64,000 nt of DNA from Tissierellales bacterium (GCA_030152145.1 JASLIL010000018.1:5100-69099), one strand, 5' to 3'; counted from the first letter of the stretch, positions 1 through 17,379 are shown. Notes: generated from the sequence alone by a model not told the origin. Numbers and translations are program-made.

Positions 1-2288
1 AGATCGTAGATGCAACTTATAAAAAATACGAAGGTGCAGTTTCCACACCAGAACTTAGAGGATTGGTGCTTAAGGAGATTATGTCCAATAAGAAGTTGTG
101 TATTAATGATGGAGAACTAATAGTGGGTGAAAGAGGAGAGGCACCAGCTGCAACTCCAACCTATCCAGAGCTATGCTGTCACACAGTTGAAGATATGGAA
201 ATAATGAACAAGAGAGAGAAGATTTCCTTTAAAGTTAGGGACGAAGACATGAAGCTTCAAGAAGAAACTATAATTCCTTACTGGGAAAAAAGATCTATGA
301 GACACCATATTCTAGAAAATATGACAGACCAGTGGAAGGACTGCTACTATGCAGGTATATTCACTGAGTTCATGGAACAAAGAGGACCAGGACACACTGT
401 AGCCGATAAAAAAGTTTTTGAAAATGGTTTTGAGGACTTCCAAAAGAGAATTCATGAAGAAATAGAAAATCTTGATTACCTTAATGATGATAGGGCTCTA
501 GATAAGCTTAACCAATTAAAGGGTATGAGCATTGCTTGTGATGCAGTTATGATATTGGGAGACAGATACTCAGAATATGCTAAGGAGCTAGCAGAAAAAG
601 AAAGTGATCCAAAAAGAAAAGAAGAGCTTCTAGAAATATCAGAGGTTTGTGCCCATGTACCAAGAAAGGCTCCAAGAACTTTCAGAGAAGCCCTACAAAT
701 GTACTGGTTTGTACACCTATGTGTAATTACAGAGTTAAATCCATGGGATTCATTTAACCCAGGAAGACTGGACCAGCACTTAAATCCTTTCTATGAAAAG
801 GAAACTTCTGAGGGAACTTTAAGTCGTGAAGAAGCAGAAGAACTACTGCAATGTTTCTGGGTGAAGTTTAACAACCAACCAGCTCCTCCAAAAGTAGGAG
901 TTACCCTAAAGGAAAGTGGAACTTATACAGACTTTGCCAATATAAACAGTGGTGGTTTAAAAACAGATGGTACTGATGGTGTAAACGAAGTTAGCTACTT
1001 GGTTTTAGATGTTATAGATGAAATGAAGCTTCTTCAACCAAGCTCAAATGTTCAAATCAGCAAGAAGACTCCACAAAAATTCTTAAAAAGAGCCTTAAAG
1101 ATAGTTAGAAAGGGTTGGGGTCAACCATCAATCTTCAATACAGATACTGTAATTCAAGAGATGTTAAGGGCAGGAAAATCTATAGAAGACGCAAGAGATG
1201 GCGGTAACTCAGGCTGTGTTGAAACAGGTGCTTTTGGTAAGGAATCATTTATCCTAACAGGATATTTTAACCTTCCAAAGGTTTTAGAAATAACCCTAAA
1301 TAATGGACTAGATCCTATTAGTGGAAAGCAATTAGGTATAAAGACTGGTGATCCAAGAGACTTTGAAACTTATGATGAATTATTTGAAGCTTTCAAGGCT
1401 CAGATGGAACACTTTATAGATATAAAGGTTAGAGGTAACAGAGTAATTGAAAGACTTTATGCTACTAAGATGCCAGTACCTTTCCTATCAGTTATAATTG
1501 ATGACTGTATATCAGAAGGAAAGGATTACAATGCAGGTGGTGCAAGATATAACACAAGCTATATCCAAGGTGTTGGTATAGGTAATATTACTGACGCTCT
1601 TTCAAGTATTAAATACAATGTATTTGATGAAAAGAAGGTAAGTATGGATGAGCTTCTAAAGGCTGTAGAGGCTAATTTTGAAGGCTATGAAGAATTACAC
1701 TACCAAGTAACTAGAAAAACTCCTAAGTATGGTAATGATGATGACTATGCTGATACTATAATGCAGGATGTCTTCAATGCCTACTATGACGAGGTTACAG
1801 GTAGACCAAATGGTAAGGGCGGAGTTCATAGAATAAATATGCTACCTACAACCTGCCATGTTTACTTTGGATCAGTTATAGGAGCTACTACAGATGGTAG
1901 ACTGGCTCACTTACCACTAGCAGATGGTATTTCACCTTCAAAAGGAGCAGATACTTCAGGACCTACAGGAGTTATTAAATCAGCTTCAAAGATGGACCAC
2001 ATTAAGACTGGTGGAACCTTATTAAATCAAAAGTTTACACCTTCTATAGTAGCTGGTGAAGATGGACTAGATAACCTGGCTCACTTTGTTAGGGCTTATT
2101 TCACTATGGATGGTCACCATATTCAGTTTAATATTATAGACAGGGATACACTTTTAGATGCTCAAGAAAATCCAGATGACTATAAGAATTTAATTGTTAG
2201 GGTAGCAGGCTATAGTGATTATTTTGGAAACCTAGACAAGGCTTTACAAGATGAAATCATAGCAAGAACAGAACAAACTTTTGAGTAA
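1..2288 (+). CDS. hypD: glycyl radical enzyme, probable trans-4-hydroxy-L-proline dehydratase (5' end outside window)
   Basis: The reading frame is open from nt 3 to the window edge, so the track Met at 63 is internal. It has the C-terminal glycyl-radical motif RVAGYSDYF and the GCVE Cys/Glu loop typical of dehydratase-type GREs. The implied size is above 760 aa. proC follows directly, as in characterised HypD loci. Confidence 0.75.
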   Translation, partial: IVDATYKKYEGAVSTPELRGLVLKEIMSNKKLCINDGELIVGERGEAPAATPTYPELCCHTVEDMEIMNKREKISFKVRDEDMKLQEETIIPYWEKRSMRHHILENMTDQWKDCYYAGIFTEFMEQRGPGHTVADKKVFENGFEDFQKRIHEEIENLDYLNDDRALDKLNQLKGMSIACDAVMILGDRYSEYAKELAEKESDPKRKEELLEISEVCAHVPRKAPRTFREALQMYWFVHLCVITELNPWDSFNPGRLDQHLNPFYEKETSEGTLSREEAEELLQCFWVKFNNQPAPPKVGVTLKESGTYTDFANINSGGLKTDGTDGVNEVSYLVLDVIDEMKLLQPSSNVQISKKTPQKFLKRALKIVRKGWGQPSIFNTDTVIQEMLRAGKSIEDARDGGNSGCVETGAFGKESFILTGYFNLPKVLEITLNNGLDPISGKQLGIKTGDPRDFETYDELFEAFKAQMEHFIDIKVRGNRVIERLYATKMPVPFLSVIIDDCISEGKDYNAGGARYNTSYIQGVGIGNITDALSSIKYNVFDEKKVSMDELLKAVEANFEGYEELHYQVTRKTPKYGNDDDYADTIMQDVFNAYYDEVTGRPNGKGGVHRINMLPTTCHVYFGSVIGATTDGRLAHLPLADGISPSKGADTSGPTGVIKSASKMDHIKTGGTLLNQKFTPSIVAGEDGLDNLAHFVRAYFTMDGHHIQFNIIDRDTLLDAQENPDDYKNLIVRVAGYSDYFGNLDKALQDEIIARTEQTFE

Positions 2289-2335
2289 ATAAGATAATAA
2301 AATTTGAATAATTGAGTTAAAAGATTTATCATAAT

Positions 2336-2363
2336 AGAGAAGAGGACTCTGGTCTTCTTCTCT
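2336..2363 (+). terminator. stem-loop after the GRE gene (possible weak terminator)
   Basis: AGAGAAGAGGAC-tctg-GTCTTCTTCTCT forms a 12-bp stem with one G-U pair. The trailing sequence is only weakly T-rich. Confidence 0.45.
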
Positions 2364-2410
2364 ATATTCATAAGTTAAGGAATGTAGGATAAAAAAAGGA
2401 GGAATTACAA

Positions 2411-3217
2411 ATGAGTAAAACATTAGGTTTTATAGGTAATGGAAATATGGGTAGAGCTATGATAGGTGGTATAATCAATGCCAATCTATTTGCAGCAGAA
2501 GATATTATAGTTTCTGATATATTTGAAGAGGGATTAAAAGACGTACATAAGAAATTAGGTGTAAATGTTACAACAGACAATTGTGAGCTAGCAAAAAAAG
2601 CAGATATTATAGTTCTTTCAATTAAGCCTAACCTATATCCGATGATCATAAAGCAAATCAAGGATGCAGTTAAGGAAGATGCAATTATAGTTACAATAGC
2701 GGCAGGAAAAGCTATTGCTGATACAGAAGCTAACTTTGGCCGTCAAATGAAGGTAGTAAGAGTTATGCCTAACACTCCTGCCCTAGTAGGTGAAGGAATG
2801 TCAGCTCTATGCCCTAGTGAAGCAGTTACAGAGGAAGAGTTTAAGGTAATAGAAGATATGTTCAATAGCTTTGGTAAGGCTGAAAAAGTTCAAGAATACC
2901 TAATGGACGCTGTAACATCTGTAAGTGGATCATCACCAGCCTATGTATATATGTTTATAGAGGCTATGGCAGATGCAGCAGTACTAGACGGAATGCCAAG
3001 ACCACAGGCCTATAGATTTGCAGCTCAGGCAGTTTTAGGTTCAGCTAAAATGGTTTTAGAAACAGGAATGCACCCAGGTGTCCTAAAAGACATGGTTTCT
3101 TCACCAGCAGGAACAACTATAGAAGCTGTAGCTAAACTAGAGGAAAAAGGCTTTAGAGATGCTGTTATTTCAGCTATGAGAGCTTGTACTAAAAAGTCAC
3201 AGGAAATGTCTAAATAA
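2411..3217 (+). CDS. proC: pyrroline-5-carboxylate reductase
   Basis: 268 aa with an N-terminal Rossmann motif GFIGNGNMG and the conserved C-terminal SSPAGTTIE region of P5C reductases. An AAGGAGG RBS lies upstream. Confidence 0.9.
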   Translation: MSKTLGFIGNGNMGRAMIGGIINANLFAAEDIIVSDIFEEGLKDVHKKLGVNVTTDNCELAKKADIIVLSIKPNLYPMIIKQIKDAVKEDAIIVTIAAGKAIADTEANFGRQMKVVRVMPNTPALVGEGMSALCPSEAVTEEEFKVIEDMFNSFGKAEKVQEYLMDAVTSVSGSSPAYVYMFIEAMADAAVLDGMPRPQAYRFAAQAVLGSAKMVLETGMHPGVLKDMVSSPAGTTIEAVAKLEEKGFRDAVISAMRACTKKSQEMSK

Positions 3218-3291
3218 TTTTTATTTTGCAAAAACATTTTCACCATTGTGATATTTATGGTATAATTTACTTTAAAGGAGGCTAACTGGTC

Positions 3292-5076
3292 ATGAATGTG
3301 AATGAAAAAATAAAGGCACTAAGGAAACTAATGAAGGAAAAAGCTATAGATGCTTATATAGTTCCAACTTCAGATCCTCATCAAAGTGAATACCTAGCAG
3401 ACTACTATCAAACAAGAGTTTGGCTAACAGGATTCACAGGTTCAGCAGGTACTGCAGTTGTAACTGAAGATAAGGCTATACTTTGGACAGATGGTAGATA
3501 TTTTATTCAGGCAGCTAAAGAACTTGAAGGTTCAGAGTTTGAACTTTATAAGATAGGTATTCCAGGATACCCAACTTATAGTGAATGGTTAGCAGAAAAC
3601 TTAGATGATAAGTCTACTATTGGATTTGATGGAAAGAACTTCCCTCAAGCTGGTCTAGATACTCTAAAGGCAGCTATGGGAAGAAAGGAAATCAATTTCA
3701 ATATAGAAGATGATTTAATAGATCCTATATGGGAAGATAGGCTGGAGGAACCAAAGACAGATGCTTTTGTACATGAGTTAAAGTACACAGGTTATTCAGC
3801 AAAGGAAAAAATTGAACAGGTGAGAGAGCAACTTAAGAAAAAATCTGCTAGTCACACTGTTATAGGTAGCCTAGATGATATTGCTTGGCTTTATAATATT
3901 AGGGGAAGAGATGTAAGCTGTAACCCAGTGGTAATCTCCTATGCTATAGTATCCTTAGATGAGGCCTACCTATTTGTGAATGAAGAAAAGCTAGACCAGG
4001 AAGTAAGAAACCATTTAACTCAAAATGGAATTAAAATAGAGGATTATAGTAGGGTAAGAAACTTTTTAGAAGGAATTTCAAAGGAAAGTGTTGTTTACTT
4101 AAATCCAAACTTTGTAAATGCTTGGCTTTATGCTGGTATTCCAAGTGACTGCCACATAGTGAAAGGCTTAAACATTACAACAGAATTAAAGGCTATAAAA
4201 AATGAAACAGAGATAAAGAATCAAAAGAATGCCTATATTAGAGATGGAGTTGCCTTGGTTAAATTTTTCCACTGGCTAGATGAAACTGTTGGAAGAGAAA
4301 AGGTAACAGAAGTATCAGCAGCTGATAAGCTAGAGGACTTTAGGCGTGAAGGGGAACTTTTCGTAGAACCTAGTTTCAACACTATAGCAGGCTACAAGGC
4401 CAATGCTGCTATGATGCACTATAGAGCTACTGAAGAAGGTTCAAATGATGAACTTAAGGAAGAAGGTATGCTACTAGTTGACTCAGGCGGACAATATTTT
4501 GATGGTACTACAGATATAACAAGAACTATTATCCTAGGACCTATATCAGAAGAAGAGAAAAAAGACTTCACTTTAACATTTAAATCACATACAATGTTAT
4601 TAGATTCTAAATTCCTTTATGGGTCTACAGGTGAGAGGCTAGATGCAATTTGCCGTTATCCAATGTGGCAGGAAGGTTTAGACTATAAGTGTGGCACAGG
4701 TCATGGTGTAGGGTATTTCCTAAATGTTCATGAAGGACCTCATAGTATATCACCTAGACCAAATACAACTGTTCTAGAAGAAGGAATGATAGTTACCATA
4801 GAACCAGGAGTATACAAGGCTGGTCTGCATGGTGTAAGAATAGAGAATGATGTAGTAGTTAGAAAGGCCTTTGAGACAGAGCATGGAGGACAATTCATGG
4901 AATTTGAAGTAATTTCATTTGCTCCAATAGACTTAAGAGGTATAGAGGTTTCAATGTTAAATGAAAAAGAAAAAAAATGGTTAAATAACTACCACAAGGC
5001 AGTATATGAAAAGCTTGCACCTCACCTAGATAATGAGAGAAAAGCATGGCTTAAAAATGCAACTAGAGAGATTTAG
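3292..5076 (+). CDS. Xaa-Pro aminopeptidase (M24B, aminopeptidase P family)
   Basis: 594 aa with creatinase/prolidase-type N-domains and a pita-bread C-domain. Metal-ligand context is present: VDSGGQY..DITRT, HGVGYFLNVHEGP, EPGVY..IEN. Confidence 0.85.
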   Translation: MNVNEKIKALRKLMKEKAIDAYIVPTSDPHQSEYLADYYQTRVWLTGFTGSAGTAVVTEDKAILWTDGRYFIQAAKELEGSEFELYKIGIPGYPTYSEWLAENLDDKSTIGFDGKNFPQAGLDTLKAAMGRKEINFNIEDDLIDPIWEDRLEEPKTDAFVHELKYTGYSAKEKIEQVREQLKKKSASHTVIGSLDDIAWLYNIRGRDVSCNPVVISYAIVSLDEAYLFVNEEKLDQEVRNHLTQNGIKIEDYSRVRNFLEGISKESVVYLNPNFVNAWLYAGIPSDCHIVKGLNITTELKAIKNETEIKNQKNAYIRDGVALVKFFHWLDETVGREKVTEVSAADKLEDFRREGELFVEPSFNTIAGYKANAAMMHYRATEEGSNDELKEEGMLLVDSGGQYFDGTTDITRTIILGPISEEEKKDFTLTFKSHTMLLDSKFLYGSTGERLDAICRYPMWQEGLDYKCGTGHGVGYFLNVHEGPHSISPRPNTTVLEEGMIVTIEPGVYKAGLHGVRIENDVVVRKAFETEHGGQFMEFEVISFAPIDLRGIEVSMLNEKEKKWLNNYHKAVYEKLAPHLDNERKAWLKNATREI

Positions 5077-5086
5077 TTAGGTTGAA

Positions 5087-5118
5087 AAAGATTAGTCTAT
5101 TAATTTAGGCTAATCTTT
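5087..5118 (+). terminator. stem-loop after the aminopeptidase gene
   Basis: AAAGATTAG...CTAATCTTT gives a 9-bp stem with a 14-nt loop. There is no strong T tract. Confidence 0.45.
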
Positions 5119-5164
5119 ACCTATAACTTTGAAAAAGCTTGCTAGTAAAGGAATGGTGGTTTGA

Positions 5165-6559
5165 TTGGACTACAAAAGCATGATAGAATTGATGATAAAG
5201 CATTTAGACGAAGGTGTTATAGTAATAGATCATGATTTAAAAATCGTCTATTTCAACGAACCTTCAACATCCATTACAGGATATGACGTAGATAAAGCTA
5301 TAGGTAAGGATATATTTGAAGTATTTCCATCCTTAGACAGGAAAAGCAGTATTCTTTGTAAGGCCATACATAGTAAAGAACCTATTATTGATTACATACA
5401 GAACTATACAAATTGTGTTGGAAAGGAAGTCTCCATTTTAACTTCTACCATACCTATAGTAGAAGAAGGTGAAGTTAAGGGAGCTATAGAGATATTTAAA
5501 GACCTAACCCATGTCAGGGAATTATCAGAAAAGGTGCTTATGCTACAAAATACTCTATATGAGAAATCAAAAGATCAGGAAATATTTTTACCCAATGGAA
5601 CTCAATACACTATTAATGATATAATAAGTAAGAATGAAAGAATGGATGGGCTTAAGGAAAGAGTTCTGAAAATTTCAAATAGTAGCTCACCAGTATTCGT
5701 ATATGGAGAGACAGGTACAGGTAAGGAGCTTTTGGTACAGGGAATACACAATTCCAGTATCAGAAGGGAAAAGCCCTTTATAGCACAAAACTGTGGGGCC
5801 CTACCAGAAAATCTCTTAGAGAGTATTCTTTTTGGAACAGTACAGGGAAGCTTTACTGGAGCCAAGGACAAGCCAGGACTTTTTGAACTGGCAGATGGTG
5901 GGACATTATTTCTAGATGAAATCAATTCTATGGACATAAACTTACAAACCAAACTTCTTAGGGTTATAGAAAATGGTATAGTAAGAAGAATTGGTAGCAC
6001 AGAAACCAAGCATGTAGACGTTAGAATAATAGCAGCATCAAATGTAGAACCAGAATTACTACTAGAAGGAAATAAGTTAAGGGAAGACCTATATTACAGA
6101 CTAAATGTAATATACTTTGAACTACCACCACTAAGGGAAAGAAAGGAAGATATACCCTTACTGGTAAATAAATTTATAGATAAGTGTAATAAAAAGCTTC
6201 ATAAAAACATCAATGGTATAAGACCAGAGGTTTTAAGTTTGTTTGTAGAAAGAACTTGGTCAGGTAATGTAAGGGAACTTCAAAATGCCATAGAGTCATC
6301 CATGAACTTTGCAGAAGGAGACTATATAGAGCTGGAAGATCTAAACCTGCCAAGAGAAAGACAGACAGTAGATTCAGAAGATCTTGACTTTGAAAGTCTT
6401 GATTTTGATTTAAAGGACGCAGTTGAAAGGTATGAGATGGAAATTATAAAATCTGCCTTGATGAACACTGAAAACAACTGTGCTGCAGCTGCCAGGAAAC
6501 TAAATGTTCCAAAGCAGACCCTTCATGGAAAAATCAAACGCTATAAGATAATGTCTTAA
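5165..6559 (+). CDS. sigma-54-dependent transcriptional activator (PAS - AAA+ - Fis-type HTH)
   Basis: N-terminal PAS-like domain, Walker A GETGTGKE, the sigma-54 contact loop GSFTGA (a GAFTGA variant), ESILFG, and a C-terminal HTH (AAAARKLNVPKQTLHGKIKRY). The start is TTG, following GGTGG. Confidence 0.9.
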   Translation: MDYKSMIELMIKHLDEGVIVIDHDLKIVYFNEPSTSITGYDVDKAIGKDIFEVFPSLDRKSSILCKAIHSKEPIIDYIQNYTNCVGKEVSILTSTIPIVEEGEVKGAIEIFKDLTHVRELSEKVLMLQNTLYEKSKDQEIFLPNGTQYTINDIISKNERMDGLKERVLKISNSSSPVFVYGETGTGKELLVQGIHNSSIRREKPFIAQNCGALPENLLESILFGTVQGSFTGAKDKPGLFELADGGTLFLDEINSMDINLQTKLLRVIENGIVRRIGSTETKHVDVRIIAASNVEPELLLEGNKLREDLYYRLNVIYFELPPLRERKEDIPLLVNKFIDKCNKKLHKNINGIRPEVLSLFVERTWSGNVRELQNAIESSMNFAEGDYIELEDLNLPRERQTVDSEDLDFESLDFDLKDAVERYEMEIIKSALMNTENNCAAAARKLNVPKQTLHGKIKRYKIMS

Positions 6560-6590
6560 AAACGAGACGAAAAGTACCAAAAACAAGACG
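6558..6590 (+). promoter_or_regulatory. phased direct repeats, candidate enhancer (UAS) for the sigma-54 activator
   Basis: AAAAACGAGACG (6558-6569) and AAAAACAAGACG (6579-6590) match at 11 of 12 positions. Their starts are 21 bp apart (two helical turns), and they lie roughly 50-80 bp upstream of the -24 element. Confidence 0.4.
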
Positions 6591-6638
6591 GCATTAAGGT
6601 TAGCAAAAACAACTTGTGTATTTCACTGACTTACAAGT

Positions 6639-6654
6639 TGGCAAGCTAATTGCA
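6639..6654 (+). promoter_or_regulatory. sigma-54 (-24/-12) promoter
   Basis: TGGCAAGCTAATTGCA. The GG (6640-6641) and GC (6652-6653) have exactly the spacing of the TGGCACG-N4-TTGCW consensus. I found no good sigma-A promoter in 6560-6812. The activator gene lies immediately upstream. Confidence 0.8.
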
Positions 6655-6812
6655 ATATATATACTGTATAGATACAAACCAAGGAATATTTGAATAAGTT
6701 AGACTATTCAATATTGTTTGAAGATTACTTTAGTTTGAATTAAGTGAATATTTTAAATCTGTTCACTATTTCAATAAATAAAACACTTAAATAATTTTAG
6801 GGGGTAGGAAAC

Positions 6813-8579: not shown

Positions 8580-8599
8580 GACATTTTTATGAACCTAAT

Positions 8600-8628: not shown

Positions 8629-8666
8629 TTATATAAAAGGTTAGCACCAAAGTAAGGAGGAGAAAG

Positions 8667-9596
8667 ATGTTTAAATTTATAGTAAAAAGAGTATTTTACT
8701 CATTAATTACACTATTCCTTATAATTACTGCTACATTCTTTTTAATAGCAGGAGCACCTGGAGATCCAATAGCTGCAAAAGCAGAACAAATGCCAGAACA
8801 AGCCCAAGCAGTAATAAAGGCAAAATATGGTTTGGATAAGCCCGTGGGTCAAAGATATGTAAAGTACATGAAGGACCTTATCACAACAGGAGATTTTGGT
8901 GAATCAATAGTATTCACAGGTAAATCAGCTAATGATGTTATTAGAGAAAATGCACCCATATCAGCTAAGATTGGTATAATTGCAGTTGTATTACAGTTTA
9001 TTATAGGAGTATTTTTAGGAATGGTTTCAGGATTAAATAGAGGAAAAGTCGGAGACCATGTTATCAGGGTATGTGTTGTATTAGCAATTTGTATTCCTGG
9101 ATTTGTATTCGCAGCATTATTACAATACTTTATAGCATTTAAGTGGAAGTTGCTTCCAGTATTTGGTTGGGGACAACTTAAGCACTATGTACTACCAGTA
9201 TTAGCCTATACTATAGGTGGTATTGCTTCATATACTAAGTATATGAGAAGTAGTATATTGTCAGTAGTAAATGAAGACTACATTATCACAGCTAAGGCAA
9301 AAGGTTGTTCAAAGAAGAGAATCATTAAAAAGCATATGTTTAGAAACTCAATGATTCCTATTGTAACAATGGTAGGACCTGCTATAGCGGGTATATTCGG
9401 TGGATCATTCGTAATTGAGAATATGTTTGGTATACCAGGATTAGGATCTTACTATATGAAAGCTGTAGGTGACAATGACTATACAATGGTTTTAGGATTA
9501 ACTGTATTCTTTGCAGCGCTTTACGTTGTATCATTAATATTCGTAGACATTGCATATGGAATAGTAGACCCAAGAATCAAGATAGCAGAAGACTAA
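8667..9596 (+). CDS. peptide ABC transporter permease (OppB/DppB-like)
   Basis: 309 aa and polytopic, with an EAA-type loop (KAKGCSKKRIIKKHMFRNS). Operon context supports the call. Confidence 0.85.
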   Translation: MFKFIVKRVFYSLITLFLIITATFFLIAGAPGDPIAAKAEQMPEQAQAVIKAKYGLDKPVGQRYVKYMKDLITTGDFGESIVFTGKSANDVIRENAPISAKIGIIAVVLQFIIGVFLGMVSGLNRGKVGDHVIRVCVVLAICIPGFVFAALLQYFIAFKWKLLPVFGWGQLKHYVLPVLAYTIGGIASYTKYMRSSILSVVNEDYIITAKAKGCSKKRIIKKHMFRNSMIPIVTMVGPAIAGIFGGSFVIENMFGIPGLGSYYMKAVGDNDYTMVLGLTVFFAALYVVSLIFVDIAYGIVDPRIKIAED

Positions 9597-9632
9597 AACT
9601 ATTAGCACACACTTAAGTTAGGAGGTTAATAT

Positions 9633-10571
9633 ATGGCAAATGTGAATGAAAACACAAAAAACATTTCAAAAGATATGTTTAGACGTGTTGGAGTAGATGA
9701 GACAGACTCAGAAAGACTAGATAAACCTTCACTTACATATTGGGCAGACGTTTGGAGAAGGTTTAAGGAAAATAAACTTGCCATGTTTGGTTTAATTCTA
9801 TTAACATTAGTTGTAATAACTATATTTGTAGGACCAACATTAGCGGGTAAAGATTATCAATACATGGATGCAAGTAAGAAAAACTTAAGACCAACGAGTG
9901 AACATTGGTTTGGTACAGATGATATGGGTAGAGACCTATTTACAAGGGTTTGCTACGGTGGTAGAATTTCTATATTAATAGGTCTACTATGTACTATAGT
10001 AATGTTCGTTGTAGGATCTTTATTAGGAGCATTAGCAGGATTAAAAGGTGGGGTTGTAGATAACCTTATAATGAGATTTACAGAGTTTATAGGTAACTTA
10101 CCTTACTTGATTATAGTAATAATACTTACTATGGTTATGGGAAGAAGTATCTTCTCACTAGTATTTGCCATGAGTATTTTATCCTGGGTAGGAACTACTA
10201 GGATGGTTAGAGGGCAGATACTACAGTTAAAGGAAATGGATTATATTCAAGCAGCAACGGCTTTAGGAGCTGGAACTGGTAGAATAATAATGAAGCATTT
10301 ACTTCCTAATACGCTGGGAATAATAATGGTAACAATAACAATGTCTGTTCCTGGATTTATATTCAGTGAGGCATTCTTAAGCTTTATCGGTCTTGGTGTT
10401 AGACCACCAGAGACAAGCTGGGGAGCATTAGCATCCGGTGGTAAAGAAAGACTTATGTTCCATCCACATATTTTATTTTTCCCAAGTTTGATGATCGTTT
10501 TAACTGTATTAGCATTCCACTTAATCGGTGACGGATTATCAGACGCATTGGATCCAAAATTAAGGGAGTAG
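9633..10571 (+). CDS. peptide ABC transporter permease (OppC/DppC-like)
   Basis: 312 aa with the N-terminal OppC-type extension, HWFGTDDMGRD, and an EAA loop (AATALGAGTGRIIMKHLLPN). Confidence 0.85.
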   Translation: MANVNENTKNISKDMFRRVGVDETDSERLDKPSLTYWADVWRRFKENKLAMFGLILLTLVVITIFVGPTLAGKDYQYMDASKKNLRPTSEHWFGTDDMGRDLFTRVCYGGRISILIGLLCTIVMFVVGSLLGALAGLKGGVVDNLIMRFTEFIGNLPYLIIVIILTMVMGRSIFSLVFAMSILSWVGTTRMVRGQILQLKEMDYIQAATALGAGTGRIIMKHLLPNTLGIIMVTITMSVPGFIFSEAFLSFIGLGVRPPETSWGALASGGKERLMFHPHILFFPSLMIVLTVLAFHLIGDGLSDALDPKLRE

Positions 10572-10581
10572 GTGAATTGTA

Positions 10582-11628
10582 ATGACAAATGAAGATAAAA
10601 TTTTAGAGATAAATAATCTGCATGTATCATTTAAAACATACGCAGGTATTGTTAAAGCAGTTAGAGGTGTAGACTTCCACTTAAACAAGGGGGAAACTCT
10701 TGCTATAGTAGGAGAATCTGGTTGTGGTAAGACTGTAACAGCTAAGGCTATAATGGACTTACTTCCAGTAGAGAATACTATTATTAGTGGAGAAAATGCC
10801 TTTGTTAAATTTAGAGGCAAAAATCTTTTACAATTTAAAGAATCAGAGATGGAAGAAATCAGAGGTAAGAGAATATCAATGATATTCCAAGACCCTATGA
10901 CTTCTTTGAACCCAACTATGAGAGTTGGAGATCAGATAGCTGAAAGTATCTTCATTCATGAAGAGCTTTCTAAAGAAGATGCTAAAAAAGCAGCTCTAAA
11001 GATGCTTAAATTAGTTAATATACCAAATGCAGAGGAAAGAATGAATCAATATCCATTTGAATTCTCAGGCGGTATGAGACAAAGAGTTATGATTGCTATA
11101 GCACTTGCTTGTAACCCAGAAATACTAATAGCAGATGAACCAACTACTGCTCTAGACGTTACAATTCAAGCGCAAATAATGGAACTTATAAAAGAGTTAC
11201 AAATTGAAATGAACACTGGAGTAATACTTGTTACTCACGACCTTGGAGTTGTTGCTAGTGTTGCAGATAGAATTCAGGTAATGTATGCTGGTATGATTCT
11301 TGAAAGAGGAACTACAGATGAAATATTCTATAGTCCAAGACATCCATACACACATGCCTTATTAAGATCTGTACCAAAACTTACAAGTACAAAGCAAGAA
11401 AGATTATATTCACTTGTAGGTACACCACCAGATTTAACAAATCCACCAAAGGGATGTCCTTTTGCGGCTAGATGTGAATATGCTATGCAGGTTTGTAGAG
11501 AAGTCCATCCAGAAACAACTCATTTTAGCTCAACTCATGCTTCAGATTGCTGGTTACACCATCAAGATGCAGACCTAAATGGAGTACCAGAGGAGCTTTT
11601 AGAAAGAGGTGTTGAATATGGAAAATAA
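10582..11628 (+). CDS. peptide ABC transporter ATP-binding protein (OppD-like)
   Basis: Walker A GESGCGKT, signature FSGGMRQR, Walker B ILIADEPTTALD, and an oligopeptide-type C-terminal extension containing Cys residues. Confidence 0.9.
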   Translation: MTNEDKILEINNLHVSFKTYAGIVKAVRGVDFHLNKGETLAIVGESGCGKTVTAKAIMDLLPVENTIISGENAFVKFRGKNLLQFKESEMEEIRGKRISMIFQDPMTSLNPTMRVGDQIAESIFIHEELSKEDAKKAALKMLKLVNIPNAEERMNQYPFEFSGGMRQRVMIAIALACNPEILIADEPTTALDVTIQAQIMELIKELQIEMNTGVILVTHDLGVVASVADRIQVMYAGMILERGTTDEIFYSPRHPYTHALLRSVPKLTSTKQERLYSLVGTPPDLTNPPKGCPFAARCEYAMQVCREVHPETTHFSSTHASDCWLHHQDADLNGVPEELLERGVEYGK

Positions 11629-12607
11629 AGAAAAAGAAGTATTAGTTAGTGTTAAGAATCTGAAAAAATACTTCGAAGTTGGTAGAAATCTATATGTTCA
11701 AGCAGTAGATGATGTTAGCTTTGATATATATAAAGGAGAAACACTAGGACTAGTAGGAGAGTCAGGTTGCGGTAAGACTACTTGTGGTAAAACTGTAATA
11801 GGACTTTATGATGCTACTGAAGGTGAAGTTTTATTTAAGGGTGAAGATGTTCACTCATTAGATAAGAAGGAGAAAAAAGAGTTTACTAAAAAAGCTCAAA
11901 TTATTTTCCAGGACCCTTACGCATCCTTGAACCCAAGAATGACTGTTGGAGATATAATAGGAGAAGGTATAGATATACATCACCTAGCAGAAGGACAAGA
12001 AAGAGAAAATATGATTCTGGATCTTTTAAGAACTGTAGGGCTAAACAAGGAGCATATCTCAAGATTTGCTCATGAGTTCTCAGGTGGACAAAGACAAAGA
12101 ATTGGTATTGCTCGTGCCCTAGCTATACAACCAGACTTTATAGTTTGTGATGAGCCTATATCAGCTCTAGACGTATCTATCCAAGCTCAGGTAGTAAACC
12201 TACTTATGGACTTACAAAAGAAACAAGGATTAACATATTTATTTATTGCCCATGACCTATCAATGGTTAAATACATTTCAGACAGAGTTGGAGTAATGTA
12301 TTTAGGACAGATGGTAGAGTTAACTACAAGTGATGAATTATATGATAATCCACTACACCCATATACAAAAGCTCTAATGTCAGCTATACCAGTAGCAGAC
12401 CCTAAGATTGAAGAGGAAAAACATAGAATTCCTATTAAGGGAGAGATTCCTTCACCAATCAATCCACCAGCTGGATGTAGGTTTAGAAAGCGTTGTAAGT
12501 ATGCAGAGGAAATTTGTAAGACAAATCCAGAGTTTAAAGAACACAAACCAGGCCACTTTGTTGCTTGTCACTTAGTTGGTACAGGTAAAATAGAAGATAA
12601 GTATTAG
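11618..12607 (+). CDS. peptide ABC transporter ATP-binding protein (OppF-like)
   Basis: Walker A GESGCGKTT, signature FSGGQRQR, Walker B FIVCDEPISALD. I prefer the ATG at 11618 (RBS AAGAGG 8 nt upstream) to the track GTG at 11609. It overlaps the oppD-like stop. Confidence 0.9.
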   Translation: MENKEKEVLVSVKNLKKYFEVGRNLYVQAVDDVSFDIYKGETLGLVGESGCGKTTCGKTVIGLYDATEGEVLFKGEDVHSLDKKEKKEFTKKAQIIFQDPYASLNPRMTVGDIIGEGIDIHHLAEGQERENMILDLLRTVGLNKEHISRFAHEFSGGQRQRIGIARALAIQPDFIVCDEPISALDVSIQAQVVNLLMDLQKKQGLTYLFIAHDLSMVKYISDRVGVMYLGQMVELTTSDELYDNPLHPYTKALMSAIPVADPKIEEEKHRIPIKGEIPSPINPPAGCRFRKRCKYAEEICKTNPEFKEHKPGHFVACHLVGTGKIEDKY

Positions 12608-12617
12608 GAGGTAGTTC

Positions 12618-13733
12618 ATGTTACTTAGAGACGGAATTATTCACATAGGGAATGGTCAAGTCTTAGAGGGATATGATATCTTAATTGCTGATTCTAAAAT
12701 AGTTAAAGTAGATAAAAATATTTCTGCAGATAATGTGGAAATTATAGAAATCCAGGGAATGCATGTATTTCCTGGATTTATAGACCCTTTAAGTTCATAC
12801 GGAAGTATGGACTTAACTTTTTCTATGAAGGATAATAATGAAGATACAGATCCTATTCAGAAGGACTTGGAAATAAAATATGCTTTTAACCCAGCGGAGA
12901 TAAAGCTGGAGGGACTGGAAACTGTAGGTATTACAAATATAGGGGCTTCACCTGGAAACTATAATATAATAGGTGGAAACATATCCCTTTATAATACATA
13001 TGAAGAGGAATTTAGAAGGTTCTTAGTAAGGGAAGATCTGGGACTAAAGGGAGCAGCTTCAGAAGTAGTAAAGGATATATTTAAGGAAAAAAATCAAGTT
13101 ATGACTAAGATGGGACTTTTTAAAAGGCTGGAAGACTGGCTACAAGAAAGTAAGAAGGAAGAGGGAAGCCTATCTAAGAAGGTTGTAGAAGGGGAAAAGC
13201 CGCTGTTTATCCATGCAAATACAGAAATGGAGATAAATTCTGTATTAAATGTTTTTAAGGATACAAAGGTTAGGCTAGTTTTACTGGGGGCCTATGAGTT
13301 TCACAAGTGTTTGAAAGCCATAAAGGACTATGGAAATATAGGCTTGATAATAGGTGAGCAAACTAATTTAACAATTAGGGGCTATTATGAAACTCAGTTA
13401 GAGAAGGCTAGAGAACTAACTAGTGAGGGTATACCAGTAAGTCTTACCTTAACAGGAGAGTATGGACCAGAAGGTAAGGTCAAGTATCTTTGGAATGCTA
13501 TAGAGTTTTATAAAAGAGGCCTGGCTTCAGAGGAAGTTATATCCTATATGACTCTTAATCCAGCCAAGATGCTGGGGGTAGATGATATCTTAGGAACTAT
13601 AGAAGAGGGAAAACTAGCTAATATGGTAGTCTATGAAAACAACCCTATTGAAACTTATGATAGTAGATGTAAAAAGACTATTATAAATGGCAAAATAGTA
13701 TATCAGGGAGGTTTTGATAATGCTACTTATTAA
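12618..13733 (+). CDS. amidohydrolase-superfamily paralog with degenerate metal site (probable non-catalytic subunit)
   Basis: It aligns along its length with the ORFs at 13720 and 30881, but the ligand positions are replaced. PGFIDPLSSYG stands in place of the HxH motif, PLFIH in place of PLK-H, IIG in place of LDH, and LTLTG in place of TTDAP. Confidence 0.7.
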   Translation: MLLRDGIIHIGNGQVLEGYDILIADSKIVKVDKNISADNVEIIEIQGMHVFPGFIDPLSSYGSMDLTFSMKDNNEDTDPIQKDLEIKYAFNPAEIKLEGLETVGITNIGASPGNYNIIGGNISLYNTYEEEFRRFLVREDLGLKGAASEVVKDIFKEKNQVMTKMGLFKRLEDWLQESKKEEGSLSKKVVEGEKPLFIHANTEMEINSVLNVFKDTKVRLVLLGAYEFHKCLKAIKDYGNIGLIIGEQTNLTIRGYYETQLEKARELTSEGIPVSLTLTGEYGPEGKVKYLWNAIEFYKRGLASEEVISYMTLNPAKMLGVDDILGTIEEGKLANMVVYENNPIETYDSRCKKTIINGKIVYQGGFDNATY

Positions 13734-14862
13734 GAATACTAAAATCTACACCATGGAAGACAGGGGAATTATTGATGGGGACATTCTGATTGAGGATGGA
13801 AAAATAGTAAGGATAGCTGATAGTATAGATGAGAAGTATGAAAATACTATTGATGGTCAAGGTCTTATAACTATGCCAGGAATAATAGACTGCCACTCTC
13901 ATATAGGTGGTATGATCTTTAAACATGACAGGAGTCATGACTCCAATGAGATGACCAAGAACATAACACCAGATGTAAATATAATATATGGAACAGATCC
14001 CCAATCACCAGACTTTAGGTTTGCCCGTGAAAATGGTATAACAAGTCTGGGAATAACACCAGGTAGCGGTAATGTTATATGTGGTCAGGTTATAGCAAGT
14101 AAAACCTATGGTGATAATATCTTCCAAATGACCATGAAAAATCCAGTAGCTTTAAAGGTTGCTCTGGGAGGAAATCCTAAGGGAACCTATGGCAGTAGAA
14201 AGCAACTTCCTAGTACTAGAATGGGAGTGGCTAAGGTTTTAAGGGACTACCTAAGTGATGGTAGAGAGTATTTAAAAAAGAAGGCTGAGAATAAGGAAGA
14301 CTTTAAGATAGATCCTGAATTTGAAGTACTAGAGCCAGTCTTCAAAAAGGAGATACCACTTAAGATTCACTGTACTCAGTTTGATATATTGACAGCTATT
14401 GAAATAGCTAAGGAGTTTGATCTGGATTTTAGCTTGGATCATGCCTGGGGTGCTGTAGACTATATAGATGAAATAGTTGAAAGCGGCTGTGAGGTTGTCT
14501 ATGGACCAATAGGAAGTAGAAGGATTTTTGGGGAGTTAAGATTAATAGATATAGAAAGCTGTAAAACTCTTCATGAAAAAGGAGTTAGGGTAAGCATAAC
14601 AACAGATGCTCCCTTAAATAGTATAGATAGCTTAATGCATCATCTGGGAGAGGTAGTAAGGGCAGGACTTCCATATACAGAGGCCCTTAAAATGCTAACA
14701 ATAAATCCAGCCAAGGTTCTAAGGCTGGAGGACAGGATTGGTTCTATAAAAGAAGGTAAGGATGGAGATCTTGTAATCTTCAGAGGGCTACCAGCCTATG
14801 AAACGGATGCAAGGGTAGCATATACAATAATAGATGGAAAAATAGTATACAAGGGAGAGTAG
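13720..14862 (+). CDS. amidohydrolase-superfamily metallohydrolase (intact HxH / K-H / DH / D ligand set)
   Basis: It carries IDCHSHIGG, PLKIHCT, SLDHAWG and ITTDAP. The ATG at 13720 has RBS GGGAGG 8 nt upstream and gives MLLIKN, parallel to its paralogs. It overlaps the preceding ORF by 14 nt, suggesting translational coupling. Confidence 0.8.
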   Translation: MLLIKNTKIYTMEDRGIIDGDILIEDGKIVRIADSIDEKYENTIDGQGLITMPGIIDCHSHIGGMIFKHDRSHDSNEMTKNITPDVNIIYGTDPQSPDFRFARENGITSLGITPGSGNVICGQVIASKTYGDNIFQMTMKNPVALKVALGGNPKGTYGSRKQLPSTRMGVAKVLRDYLSDGREYLKKKAENKEDFKIDPEFEVLEPVFKKEIPLKIHCTQFDILTAIEIAKEFDLDFSLDHAWGAVDYIDEIVESGCEVVYGPIGSRRIFGELRLIDIESCKTLHEKGVRVSITTDAPLNSIDSLMHHLGEVVRAGLPYTEALKMLTINPAKVLRLEDRIGSIKEGKDGDLVIFRGLPAYETDARVAYTIIDGKIVYKGE

Positions 14863-14882
14863 TTAAAAGCTACTCTTTTTTT
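14856..14882 (+). terminator. rho-independent terminator closing the transporter/amidohydrolase operon
   Basis: AGAGTAG-ttaaaag-CTACTCT followed by a T7 run; it overlaps the stop codon. Confidence 0.8.
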
Positions 14883-15039
14883 ATAAAAAAAATAAGTCAT
14901 TAAATAGCTTTGATAATTTATCTTTTTATAAAGTTTGACTGGAATAGTAAGAAGATTTAGATTAGTCCACATTCTTAGCTAGAATTGTGGATAGATCTTA
15001 GGAATAGAAAGACTTATTAACAGTATTGGGGGGATTTAC

Positions 15040-17379
15040 TTGAAGAAGAAGTTTATGATTCTTATGGCCTTAGTCCTAATTTTAAGCTCTTGTAGTCAGG
15101 AGGAAAAACAGGAATTAAAGTCAGTGGTGGCCTTAATTAATTTTTCAGACTATAAATTTGAAGAAATAGACAGGCGGGAAGAAGACTTGATCAACAAGTA
15201 TTCTGGCAAGGACTACAACAAAAGTCTTTATCAGTCTATGTTTTTCGGTGAGGACTATTATAAGGGCAGCAATGGAGATGACTATATGACCTTGAGGAAA
15301 TACTATAGGGATCTTTCAGGAGGCAACTTAGATATTACAGGATCTGTTTATGGCTTCTACCAGGGCAGGGAAGAAGCCAGCTATTATGGTGCCAATGTAA
15401 ATGGCCTTTATTCAGATCAAAAGTCAGCTGTAGACCTGGTAATAGAAGCCTGTGAAAATCTAGCAGAAGATAAAAGTCTAGATCTGGCTAACTTTGCAAA
15501 AAACGGAAGAAATATAGACAGCCTTATAGTTATACATCCAGGAATAGGGGAAGAGTGGGGTGGAGGATCCTTGGGAGAAGAGGCAATCTGGCCCTTTAGG
15601 GGAAAGATATCCTGGTTTGAAAATCTAGACTACAGCCATTTAAAAATAAAGGACTATAGGGGTAAAGAATATATTTTTGATGACTTTATAATAGTAAGTC
15701 AAGACCTGGCCCCCTCCCTAATAGCCCATGAATATGGACATATTTTAGGACTTCCAGATCTTTATGGATTTGAGGGCAGTACACCACCTACAGAGTACTG
15801 GTCTCTTATGAGCAGCTCCTATGCAGGCAAGGATGTTTTTGGATCCATGTATATAGATATGGGTGCCTACTGTAGGTATAAACTAGGGGACTATCAGGAT
15901 ATGGAGGGCTTTTATAATTTAAGGGAAATAGACTATAGGGAGCTTAATAAGGCCCTGGAGCTGGAGCTTAGGGAAAGCAACCAGAGAAGTGGGGCTATAG
16001 ACCTAGTAAAGATAAATATGGAGCCTAGAAAACATAGGGAAAAGACTCCCAGCTCAGGAGAATATATGTATGTCTCCCATGGTGGCAGGGACAATAATCA
16101 TATGTCCTTGGACCTGGATTTAAGAGGTATAGTAGACTTAGAGTTAGAAATGGATTTAAGCCTTCATCTTAAGGAAGACTATGACAGCCTTAGCCTTGTT
16201 ATAGAAGATTTGAGAACAGGAGAGAAGGAGGCCTTGGAATCAAGGGAAGGCCAGGCCATGATTAAAAAGCTTAGCCTATTTGATCTATATGGGGAAAAGG
16301 TGGAGATGCAAAAAGCTATTAAGGCTTTTACTGGCATGAAACCAAAGTGGACCAAGTACAGCTTTGATTTGGACAACTATTCTGGCAGAAGGGTTAGGAT
16401 TCACTTTTACCACAGTGCCCTAGAAGAAAATCCGGTTTATATAGATAATATCTGCCTTAAGTCTGAGGGCCAGGAAGTTCTGGTTTTTGACGCTGAGGAG
16501 GATAAAAAAGAAGTAGATTTAGGTGATTTTGAAATAAGTGATGGTAGGACAGAAGAGGAAAGCTACTATCTTTTAGAGTGGAGAAATCCTAGGAAGGGTT
16601 CTATAGATGAGGGTCTAGGATATATAAATAAAAATAGGAAGGGCTTTTCCTATGATCCAGGCCTAGTCATCTGGTATGTAAATGAAAGATTTGATGACTA
16701 TGGCAGGATAGATCAGAATGTATCAGTCTATACAGGTAAGCCTTCTGTAGGAGTAGTAGATAGTGATCAAAATCCACCTCTAGTAATTCAGAAGGGCCAG
16801 GAAGAAAAGGACAAGTCAGCTGTAACTAATATGGCAGATGCAGCCTTTGGCCTGGGAGTCCAGGATTACTATAAGATAAAATTAGGGGATGGACTAGTAG
16901 AAGATAGACATCTTTATAAAAATCCATACTTTAACAGTGGTCTAGACTATAGTAACAGTCATAGTCCTATGCTGGGTATGAAGCTAGATGCTAAGGATCT
17001 GAGGATAAATATAGTTGAGCAGGACAGGAACAATAGCTATGGAAAACTAGTGATTTCCAGGGACCATCTGGAAAAGAAGGGCCAAGAAATTCAGCTTAAG
17101 AGCATAGACTTTATAGCTGATGAGTTGGTAGTAGACCTAGGTAAAAAACCTAGGGATCAATACTATATAGGGCTTATAAATAAGGAGGGTCATAGCCTAA
17201 GACTGGCCCTGGAAATAATAGGAGATAAATTAGTCCTAAACACAGCTAATTCAGAATACTTGAAGGCCTCCTATGACATAGACTATATAGTTTTACTGGA
17301 GGATAGCTATAGGACCATATATAACAAAAAGTTTCATCCTATAGGGCAAGATCTGGAAATAAAAAATAAGTCTAAATAA
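15040..17379 (+). CDS. M6 family metalloprotease lipoprotein (immune inhibitor A-like)
   Basis: Signal peptide with lipobox LSSC and a zinc motif HEYGHILGLPDLY that is characteristic of InhA/M6. At 779 aa it has the family-typical size. The start is TTG, following GGGGGG. Confidence 0.8.
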   Translation: MKKKFMILMALVLILSSCSQEEKQELKSVVALINFSDYKFEEIDRREEDLINKYSGKDYNKSLYQSMFFGEDYYKGSNGDDYMTLRKYYRDLSGGNLDITGSVYGFYQGREEASYYGANVNGLYSDQKSAVDLVIEACENLAEDKSLDLANFAKNGRNIDSLIVIHPGIGEEWGGGSLGEEAIWPFRGKISWFENLDYSHLKIKDYRGKEYIFDDFIIVSQDLAPSLIAHEYGHILGLPDLYGFEGSTPPTEYWSLMSSSYAGKDVFGSMYIDMGAYCRYKLGDYQDMEGFYNLREIDYRELNKALELELRESNQRSGAIDLVKINMEPRKHREKTPSSGEYMYVSHGGRDNNHMSLDLDLRGIVDLELEMDLSLHLKEDYDSLSLVIEDLRTGEKEALESREGQAMIKKLSLFDLYGEKVEMQKAIKAFTGMKPKWTKYSFDLDNYSGRRVRIHFYHSALEENPVYIDNICLKSEGQEVLVFDAEEDKKEVDLGDFEISDGRTEEESYYLLEWRNPRKGSIDEGLGYINKNRKGFSYDPGLVIWYVNERFDDYGRIDQNVSVYTGKPSVGVVDSDQNPPLVIQKGQEEKDKSAVTNMADAAFGLGVQDYYKIKLGDGLVEDRHLYKNPYFNSGLDYSNSHSPMLGMKLDAKDLRINIVEQDRNNSYGKLVISRDHLEKKGQEIQLKSIDFIADELVVDLGKKPRDQYYIGLINKEGHSLRLALEIIGDKLVLNTANSEYLKASYDIDYIVLLEDSYRTIYNKKFHPIGQDLEIKNKSK

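Follow-up and report, generated by a model that had tools for sequence, protein, structure and literature searches.

Hydroxyproline dehydratase genes beside a sigma-54-preceded peptide importer and amidohydrolase operon: a candidate route for collagen-type peptides in a Tissierellales bacterium

The 64,000-nucleotide stretch of Tissierellales bacterium DNA analysed here (GCA_030152145.1 JASLIL010000018.1:5100-69099, hereafter the window) begins with a locus of 12 genes at positions 1-17379. Genes for converting hydroxyproline (Hyp) to proline, hypD and proC, and an Xaa-Pro aminopeptidase gene, pepP, stand there in front of an operon with a sigma-54 promoter, which encodes a five-gene ATP-binding cassette (ABC) importer and two amidohydrolase-like proteins, here called AmhA and AmhB. 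We propose that these separately transcribed units together let the anaerobe use short, Pro/Hyp-rich peptides of the collagen type, and we give this reading a probability of roughly one half. An initial annotation of the same sequence had described a single sigma-54-controlled salvage locus for collagen and hydroxyproline peptides, with ten genes on one strand, and its overall interpretation is partly supported. Every element that it named is present in its place. The gene count is 12, and the argument from strand falls away: the + strand holds 44 of the 52 long open reading frames (ORFs) of the window, so the co-orientation of the cluster is uninformative. The features of the locus are as follows.

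1-2288, + strand: hypD, trans-4-hydroxy-L-proline dehydratase, a glycyl radical enzyme; ~26 codons at the 5' end are cut off by the window
2334-2365, + strand: hairpin between hypD and proC (-20 kcal/mol, z -4.7), no clean U-tract
2411-3217, + strand: proC, pyrroline-5-carboxylate (P5C) reductase (TIGR00112; Pfam P5CR_dimer)
3237-3266, + strand: sigma-70-like promoter match with extended -10 (TG-TATAAT) before pepP, a consensus match only
3292-5076, + strand: pepP, three-domain M24B Xaa-Pro aminopeptidase of the APP1/XPNPEP1 type (Pfam and solved relatives)
5180-6559, + strand: sigma-54 enhancer-binding protein (EBP) with PAS, AAA+ (GSFTGA) and HTH_8 domains (Pfam, translation)
6553-6568, + strand: candidate upstream activating sequence (UAS) GTCTTAAAAACGAGAC (GTCT-N8-AGAC), 86 bp upstream of the -24 element
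6639-6654, + strand: sigma-54 (-24/-12) promoter TGGCAAGCTAATTGCA, an exact match at a conserved position
6813-8579, + strand: lipoprotein substrate-binding protein (SBP), family 5, peptide type (Pfam SBP_bac_5; lipobox LAGC)
8667-9596 and 9633-10571, + strand: permease genes of OppB and OppC types (best NCBIfam matches Opp3B and Opp4C/Opp3C)
10582-11628 and 11609-12607, + strand: overlapping ATPase genes of OppD and OppF types (NCBIfam OppD/OppF-type matches)
12618-13733, + strand: amhA, predicted catalytically dead amidohydrolase paralogue (PDB 3OOQ homologue, metal ligands lost)
13720-14862, + strand: amhB, amidohydrolase with intact ligand set (PDB 3OOQ family); its start overlaps the end of amhA
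14851-14881, + strand: intrinsic terminator after amhB (14-bp hairpin and U-tract, -13.3 kcal/mol, z -4.9)
15040-17379, + strand: M6 (InhA-like) lipoprotein metalloprotease, a separate transcription unit (Pfam; HEYGH; lipobox LSSC)

Four stable hairpins or terminators split the region: the hairpin after hypD, one after pepP (folding energy -15.4 kcal/mol, z -5.4), the terminator after amhB and a strong terminator 3' of the M6 gene (17396-17422). Because these partition the region, the sigma-54 promoter serves exactly seven genes, from that of the SBP to amhB. Between hypD and proC, the hairpin may act as a partial terminator or as a transcript-stabilizing element; its one Rfam match is weak (BSnc120, 29 bits against a gathering score of 114). 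For the sequence upstream of the window we used scaffold L081, an ENA metagenome sequence that is 99.8% identical to positions 1-18363 (related loci are cited by such L numbers throughout). An exact-protein look-up with the SBP led to this upstream sequence; look-ups with proC, pepP and the protein P0001 returned no record. Even a scan that tolerated one mismatch found no -24/-12 element before the hypD operon (in L081), pepP or the M6 gene, and pepP follows the sigma-70-like match, which agrees with the consensus at 10 of 12 positions and has the TG. The region is on this evidence predicted to comprise several transcription units, not a single sigma-54 locus. Sigma-54 control, as the initial annotation had it, holds for the importer-amidohydrolase operon and fails for the hypD operon, pepP and M6.

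The glycyl radical enzyme is, judging from its sequence, a true HypD. It scores 1468.8 bits against the NCBIfam equivalog model NF043068 (cutoff 1100), and the next model, PFL2-3, reaches 640. We checked 12 residues in an alignment to HypD of C. difficile (6VXC, chain numbering offset +20) and all of them are kept: R156, H160, D278, K326, S334, D339, F340, C434, E436, Y450, T645 and G765. The Gly-radical loop, the Cys-X-Glu loop and the HypD-specific H160, D278, D339, F340, S334, Y450 and T645 are therefore all in place; the roles of these residues are backed by mutagenesis or structures (PMC7077986). In L081 the full hypD gene encodes 787 amino acids and is preceded by a dedicated radical-SAM HypD activase (NF043069, 466 bits against a cutoff of 425), which lies outside the window, and by an XRE/cupin regulator. 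The adjacent proC product passes its own model (TIGR00112, 286.7 bits against 196.75). A HypD with a ProC partner had been predicted by the initial annotation, which asked for the enzyme to be placed in a set of models and for its substrate residues to be examined; both tests confirm HypD.

The HTH_3/Cupin_2 regulator gene (L081 183-770, ~1.6 kb upstream of window position 1) heads the hypD operon and ends 13 bp before the activase gene, and its product is a candidate Hyp-responsive regulator. The activase gene of L012, a Sporanaerobacter locus described below, has no HTH_3/Cupin_2 gene in front of it. The UAS motif GTCY-N8-RGAC is absent from the hypD operon; it occurs once in the 20-kb locus, at 6553-6568.

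PepP has the domains Creatinase_N, Creatinase_N_2, Peptidase_M24 and Peptidase_M24_C (Pfam), that is, the three-domain architecture with a pita-bread catalytic domain that marks the APP1 type of the M24B family. Its closest solved relative is human XPNPEP1 (3CTZ, E 2e-119), followed by 4S2R (E 4e-115), in agreement with the earlier naming of an Xaa-Pro aminopeptidase. APP1-type enzymes remove the residue that precedes Pro or Hyp.

The promoter TGGCAAGCTAATTGCA has the -24 GG, the -12 GC, the canonical spacing and an operon behind it, and it is the sole zero-mismatch intergenic -24/-12 match in the window. With one mismatch allowed the scan returns 12 matches where 6.3 are expected by chance. 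The match alone is therefore not beyond chance, and its position is what counts, because a -24/-12 element precedes the orthologous operon in related loci as well. We found one before the first operon gene in L001 (twice), L002, L004, L005, L008 (a TGGTA variant), L011, L037, L083 and L168. EBP orthologues precede the ABC operon in L002, L004, L005, L008, L011, L037, L083 and L168, of which L083 and L168 came from an AmhB-based search and the others from the SBP scan described below. These orthologues are 61-62% identical in L008, L011, L037 and L083. The rpoN gene lies directly upstream of that for the EBP in L002, L004, L005 and L168; the annotated proteins of the window include neither sigma-54 nor any prd gene product. 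The EBP itself has a Sigma54_activat domain (E 1.2e-60), a Walker A motif, HTH_8 and the loop variant GSFTGA, which is listed among EBP loop variants (Nie et al., PMC6615313). The earlier suggestion that a PAS-type sigma-54 activator and a -24/-12 promoter drive the importer is borne out, with amhA and amhB in the same operon.

The inverted repeat at 6553-6568 is a candidate UAS for the EBP. Its count in the locus is by itself not significant; L008 and L083 have comparable inverted repeats 80-110 bp before the -24 element, and those of L001 and L037 are weaker. We considered and dropped the idea that the EBP is PrdR or a PrdR-like sensor. PrdR is its best NCBIfam match, but with 369.7 bits it misses the cutoff of 795, and the alignment covers no more than profile positions 132-577, leaving the first ~130 model positions unmatched. 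The PAS domain alone, at 37 bits to PrdR, is no closer to PrdR than to AtoS.

Two further features of this regulatory region are worth recording. At 6610-6640 an 8-bp inverted repeat, CAACTTGT-N15-ACAAGTTG, has a right arm that overlaps the -24 GG (fold z -2.1) and could be the operator for a second regulator. A long hairpin recurs in the sigma-54-driven leaders of orthologous ABC operons, and its loop contains CUCCCCC, which resembles an anti-Shine-Dalgarno sequence (L001 ~9790-9880 and ~11890-11975, L011 ~5465-5545, L037 ~9840-9915). In the RNAalifold consensus of the 4 sequences 26 pairs form, and compensatory changes occur in 12 of these; the hairpin may be an uncharacterized leader RNA. 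The window's own sigma-54 leader (6655-6812) is not significantly structured (z -0.5) and is without this hairpin. An Rfam scan of the leaders and related loci gave no match at E <= 0.1.

The importer is predicted to be of the peptide type. It has the composition of an Opp/Dpp importer, with a family-5 SBP, two BPD_transp_1 permeases and two oligo_HPY ATPases (the oligo_HPY domain is recorded in the L081 gene calls). The best solved relatives of the SBP are DppE (8AY0, E 2.5e-54) and OppA, with MppA also among the best. Nickel and opine models stay far below their cutoffs, for example NikA with 140.6 bits against 393 and CntA with 128.4 against 800. No equivalog cutoff is reached. The initial annotation's five-gene family-5 importer, at 6813-12607, is upheld, and its peptide type is likely.

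The operon ends with an uncharacterized gene pair. AmhA and AmhB are 29% identical to each other, and both are related to PDB 3OOQ (AmhB E 2.8e-70, AmhA E 1.3e-30). In AmhB the ligands H61, H63, K148, H219, H243 and D298 are invariant in 26-27 orthologues; by analogy with the amidohydrolase superfamily we assign the HxH to strand 1, the Lys to strand 4, the two following His to strands 5 and 6 and the Asp to strand 8. AmhB is accordingly predicted, from this ligand set, to be catalytically competent. AmhA lacks the second His of the HxH, the strand-6 His and the strand-8 Asp in all of the 26 gene pairs compared. The second His is replaced by S, A, N or V, the strand-6 His by D, G, N or E and the Asp by T or S. 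AmhA nevertheless has 46 invariant columns across 11 orthologues, and 76 relatives at E <= 1e-30 among the 1.84 billion representative proteins that were searched. One of the proteins found, P0145 (771 aa), is a natural fusion of an AmhA-like N-terminal half without HxH and an AmhB-like C-terminal half with the full ligand set. Taken together, the loss of ligands in 26/26 pairs and the natural fusion indicate that the pair is probably a heteromer, in which AmhA is the probable non-catalytic partner subunit of AmhB. Two amidohydrolase-superfamily proteins are thus present as had been claimed, one of them predicted to be catalytically dead.

An AlphaFold2 (AF2) model of AmhB (predicted local distance difference test, pLDDT, 83) matches 3OOQ with a template-modelling (TM) score of 0.87. 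The next matches, at TM ~0.6, are Aquifex dihydroorotase (DHOase), the cog1228 prolidases 3FEQ/3N2C and 2QS8, isoaspartyl dipeptidase and an Arg carboxypeptidase. On the model, dipeptidase chemistry is plausible for AmhB, and so, from gene context, is a role for AmhAB as a hydrolase of Pro/Hyp peptides.

Two side observations concern this family. A third 3OOQ-type paralogue, 43% identical to AmhB and with its HxH intact, lies alone at window positions 30881-32032 between tex and an NAD-kinase-like gene, and appears to be an unpaired version of the family. The AmhA search also matched many proteins of 800-1500 aa in 3 to 7 stretches, a pattern that suggests several amidohydrolase-like domains in each.

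Comparison with other genomes shows how far the operon is conserved. A scan with the SBP, using one genome per species, returned 39 orthologous loci at 44-72% identity, while the other 41 loci are unrelated family-5 systems at ~25%. In ~28 of the 39 the amhA and amhB genes come right after the ABC genes (before them in L010), and the permeases of orthologous loci are 68-80% identical. Altogether the module of ABC genes, amhA and amhB is conserved in about 50 loci of Clostridia and Bacilli; the ~28 genome loci belong to Lachnospiraceae, Oscillospiraceae, Peptostreptococcaceae, Alkaliphilus, Tissierellia and Halanaerobiales. Metagenomes, scanned with an alignment of AmhA, yielded 24 further contigs, mostly from the human gut, with the same module. 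Control by an EBP and a conserved -24/-12 element is found in a subset of the module loci.

Xaa-Pro peptidase genes of the M24B family adjoin the module in at least six arrangements. Three genomes (the window, L011 and L012) have hypD no more than 10 kb from the ABC operon, in three gene orders. In L011 (Schnuerera) the order is activase, hypD, EBP, sigma-54 promoter and SBP, and in L012 (Sporanaerobacter) the ABC operon leads into activase, hypD, P5C dehydrogenase (814.5 bits against a cutoff of 648) and a PepQ-like M24 peptidase. In L002, L004, L005 and L168 the gene that comes first after the sigma-54 promoter encodes a PepQ-like M24 peptidase. A pepP orthologue of 64% identity abuts the SBP gene in L001, and another adjoins the module in L165 (Tissierella carlieri), where amhA and amhB are followed by eutH and a three-domain pepP. 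In L084, from a Bacillaceae genome, the order is S9 peptidase, ABC genes, amhA, amhB, SBP and two M24 genes. These differing gene orders argue for repeated selection rather than for one inherited block. The recurrence beside Pro/Hyp enzymes is the main support for a Pro/Hyp-peptide substrate, and points to such a substrate by genomic association. Conserved linkage in relatives, which the initial annotation had named as a check, is accordingly found between the ABC genes and amhAB, with M24B genes, and, in three genomes, between hypD and the ABC operon; linkage to hypD is missing in most of the family, and no related genome locus links proC or M6 to the module.

Some of these loci have peculiarities of their own. 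An IS110-family transposase gene (L165 6662-7840) lies between the SBP gene and amhA and splits the module of Tissierella carlieri. The L084 S9 peptidase was considered as a proline-specific enzyme, which was not shown, its best match being oligopeptidase B, below cutoff. In L008, four genes at 13237-16530 take the place of amhAB after the EBP/sigma-54 ABC operon: Fer2_4 (101 aa), a Pyr_redox_2/soxA-like gene (359 aa), Fer4+BFD+SO_alpha_A3 (252 aa) and a DAO/soxB-like gene (387 aa). The set resembles a heteromeric sarcosine oxidase or a dye-linked proline dehydrogenase and could not be assigned. Homologues of uvrC and hprK adjoin the module both in the window (18414-21219, downstream) and in L020/L023, a Bariatricus metagenome-assembled genome and Coprococcus comes (1344-5170, upstream), an adjacency that may be the remnant of an ancestral chromosomal position. 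Several of the loci L109-L131, which are mostly JGI metagenome contigs, have a distant AmhB-like match (23-30% identity) ~1.5 kb upstream of an AmhA-like match, and some have an aldehyde dehydrogenase gene on the opposite strand. They may represent a second family of paired amidohydrolases.

The proteases that were thought to feed the system are less closely tied to it. The M6 protein has the Pfam domains Peptidase_M6, InhA-like_MAM and InhA-like_VEG, with HEYGH at residue 230. It had been taken to end the cluster, and it is indeed present at 15040-17379; its gene comes after the amhB terminator, relatives do not keep it with the module, and its membership of the system is doubtful. The two M9 proteins reported as collagenases 22 kb downstream also exist, at 39400-41409 (M9a) and 41617-44763 (M9b), beyond 22 kb of housekeeping genes (uvrC, hprK, PFOR, murB, rapZ, yvcK, tex, tsaE and tsaD), and are not part of the cluster. 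M9b has a signal peptide, M9_N, M9, ColG_sub and PKD domains and HEFTH, and looks like a secreted collagenase. M9a (669 aa) has M9 and ColG_sub domains, HEFVH and a weak M9_N match, without signal peptide, PKD or collagen-binding domains, and may be an M9 peptidase that stays inside the cell or leaves it by a non-classical route. Judging by the M9 genes, the organism is probably collagenolytic. Further along, at 47859-48797, the window encodes an Ntn hydrolase resembling choloylglycine hydrolase and penicillin-V amidase, which scores 160 bits where the bile salt hydrolase (BSH) cutoff is 350.

We can now set out how the parts may work together. One unit would comprise, in order, the XRE/cupin regulator, the HypD activase, hypD, the hairpin and proC, followed by pepP with its own promoter match. 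In the other, the PAS activator would bind the upstream inverted repeat and open the sigma-54 promoter for the SBP, two permeases, two ATPases, AmhA and AmhB. M9 collagenases yield Gly-X-Y triplets such as Gly-Pro-Hyp (PMC9304777, PMC13284217). The SBP and ABC system would import such Pro/Hyp peptides, and PepP would trim a tripeptide of the Gly-Pro-Hyp type, leaving Pro-Hyp or Xaa-Hyp. Pro-Hyp is a poor substrate for host peptidases (PMC6219649). The AmhAB heteromer could then hydrolyse the imino-acid peptides that M24 enzymes handle poorly, freeing Hyp and Pro. The last steps, from Hyp to P5C by HypD and from P5C to proline by ProC, are the established biochemistry of this family and would complete the route. 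In this scheme we infer the peptide ligand, the AmhAB substrate, the signal for the PAS domain and the roles of the M6 and M9 proteases.

How well does this scheme stand against a looser neighbourhood, in which chance has put a standard hypD-proC operon next to a sigma-54 module that serves peptide uptake and hydrolysis in general? The amidohydrolases would then not be Hyp-specific, and the module would act on ordinary peptides or on, for example, isoaspartyl, D-amino-acid or cell-wall peptides. Several observations weigh against our reading and mostly in favour of this one. Most module loci, including all 24 human-gut contigs sampled and the Lachnospiraceae and Oscillospiraceae genomes, have a GntR/FCD regulator, and no hypD, proC or M24 gene was found within 10 kb in the 24 metagenome contigs, nor near most module loci, from which it follows that the core module need not be Hyp-specific. 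The L012 stretch from the ABC operon to hypD is without the amh pair, and the L011 contig ends inside the ABC operon, so what is directly linked to hypD is the transporter rather than AmhAB. No characterized enzyme is close to AmhB (~16% identity, TM ~0.6), and isoaspartyl dipeptidase and DHOase are as near to it as the prolidases. Against the XaaPro dipeptidase model NF051886 it scores 51 bits where the cutoff is 500, over a C-terminal stretch only; its placement in the cog1228 Xaa-Pro dipeptidase family failed on this score, a result that concerns membership and not similar chemistry. The PAS domain of the EBP is generic and gives no clue to its ligand, and odd neighbours occur, namely the sarcosine-oxidase-like complex of L008 and eutH in L165. 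Moreover, the hypD operon lacks sigma-54 elements and is led by a regulator gene of its own, neither M6 nor proC is conserved together with the module, and a peptide-fermenting genome of the Clostridia type is expected to hold many peptide genes. What a loose neighbourhood explains poorly is the pattern of linkage. By a rough estimate only ~0.7% of random loci would lie as close to a single-copy gene as hypD does to the ABC operon in each of three genomes, and it does so in three orders. The ABC operon of L012 runs straight into activase, hypD, P5C dehydrogenase and pepQ, and an M24B peptidase gene sits inside the sigma-54 operon in four loci and is adjacent in at least three further arrangements. 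We consider a loose neighbourhood a real possibility, if on the whole an unlikely one.

It is improbable, in our view, that the module handles a non-peptide or atypical amide, such as N-acyl amino acids (including N-acyl-proline), cyclic dipeptides like cyclo(Pro-Hyp), opine-like compounds or metal chelates. Nickel and opine binders do occur among family-5 SBPs, many cyclic and N-acyl amides are substrates of amidohydrolase-superfamily enzymes, and Xiang and colleagues reportedly found in 2010 that cog1228 prolidases also accept N-acyl-prolines. The neighbours in L008 and L165 would fit here too. The nickel and opine matches of our SBP are weak, however, its nearest relatives are the peptide binders named above, the ATPases carry oligo_HPY and the recurrent neighbours are M24B-type peptidases. 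Newly described gut metallo-amidohydrolases act on bile-acid amidates; that of B. wadsworthia is described as a secreted metalloBSH and the class as taurine-selective. AmhA and AmhB have no signal peptide and are encoded in a peptide-importer operon, and we set aside AmhB as a metalloBSH. Least probable of all is that the whole 17 kb, including hypD-proC-pepP and M6, forms one regulon of the sigma-54 activator. The EBP gene does have the hypD block on one side and the ABC operon on the other, in L011 it immediately follows hypD, and the best full-length NCBIfam match of its product is the sigma-54 regulator of the prd operon. The promoter scans, the single UAS motif, the XRE/cupin gene at the head of the hypD operon, the extended -10 match before pepP, the terminator before M6 and the failure of the EBP to qualify as PrdR all speak against such a regulon.

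The preferred reading, that separate units jointly serve the use of collagen-type peptides, can be taken one step further, as a tentative proposal that we hold to be doubtful as it stands. AmhA and AmhB might form an unrecognized heteromeric, anaerobic imidodipeptidase for Pro-Hyp, Xaa-Hyp or Pro-Pro type peptides. In Clostridia of the gut and of the environment it would gate the entry of collagen peptides into the HypD reaction and proline (Stickland) metabolism, and it would be controlled by sigma-54 and an EBP in some lineages and by GntR in others.

The interest of such a step lies in what is already known about hydroxyproline. HypD is reported to rank among the glycyl radical enzymes most abundant in the human gut, it supplies proline to Stickland fermenters such as C. 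difficile, and most Hyp reaches microbes within collagen peptides (PMC6219649). Our literature search found no description of how anaerobes free Hyp from collagen peptides, nor any of the ABC-AmhAB module, its active/dead asymmetry or its association with hypD and M24B genes. Control of amino-acid and peptide operons of Clostridia by sigma-54 and EBPs is known in general, and a reconstruction for the Clostridiales lists no EBP group with such an ABC/amidohydrolase regulon; the nearest group in it is YpdR, 'metM-memP-pepABC' (PMC6615313). HypD and ProC are likewise already known, and what is new here, at the level of sequence comparison, is the loss of AmhA ligands in every pair together with the natural AmhA-AmhB fusion. 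The locus and its relatives nominate a widely distributed candidate, a dedicated peptide importer coupled to an active/dead amidohydrolase pair, whose Hyp-specificity is uncertain. If the proposal is true, it would give a function to the 3OOQ-type subfamily of AmhB, an example of a pseudo-enzyme partner within the amidohydrolase superfamily and a missing step on the route from collagen to proline. If it is refuted, what is left is a known hypD operon beside an ordinary peptide-uptake operon, and nothing more.

Finally, we compare the locus with the systems that it most resembles. The HypD, HypD activating enzyme and P5C reductase cluster of C. difficile and other Clostridia has the same HypD residues, an upstream activase and a downstream proC, an arrangement described as common in Clostridiales (PMC6219649, PMC7077986). 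The locus described here differs in its XRE/cupin leader gene, its APP1-type aminopeptidase and the sigma-54 importer/amidohydrolase operon behind, and in the HypD literature that we searched no mention of such aminopeptidase, importer or amidohydrolase neighbours was found. PrdR, the sigma-54 activator of the proline reductase operon, shares with our EBP the PAS/AAA+/HTH architecture and the control of a -24/-12 promoter in amino-acid and peptide fermenters, and the candidate UAS is an inverted repeat in the style of TGT-N10-12-ACA (PMC6615313). The target is different, being an ABC/amidohydrolase operon and not prd genes.

The importer follows the Opp/Dpp systems, such as DppE and OppA of B. 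subtilis, in its five-gene layout, its family-5 lipoprotein SBP and its oligo_HPY ATPases. It departs from them in that the orthogroup, which reaches none of the equivalog cutoffs, is defined by its fixed coupling to amhA-amhB. For AmhA there is a parallel in PyrC', the non-catalytic subunit of the aspartate transcarbamoylase (ATCase) complex of Pseudomonas, which has an amidohydrolase fold, has lost its metal ligands and is kept as a structural partner. The partner of PyrC' is a different enzyme, ATCase, whereas that of AmhA is an active paralogue of the same fold. The cog1228 Xaa-Pro dipeptidases and carboxypeptidases (3FEQ/3N2C, 2QS8 and 3BE7) belong to the same superfamily and have the same fold as AmhB, and we know of no dead partner subunit among the Xaa-Pro dipeptidases of this group. 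They offer a precedent for prolidase chemistry outside the M24 family, being metal-dependent hydrolases of dipeptides with a C-terminal Pro (PMC13081988). The closest solved relative of both AmhA and AmhB is 3OOQ, an 'amidohydrolase' of Thermotoga maritima from structural genomics with no assigned function, of which the sole mention that we found in the literature is a docking-methods preprint. It was deposited as a single protein with its HxH, whereas AmhA and AmhB appear as an obligatorily paired duplicate, one dead and one active, within a transporter operon.

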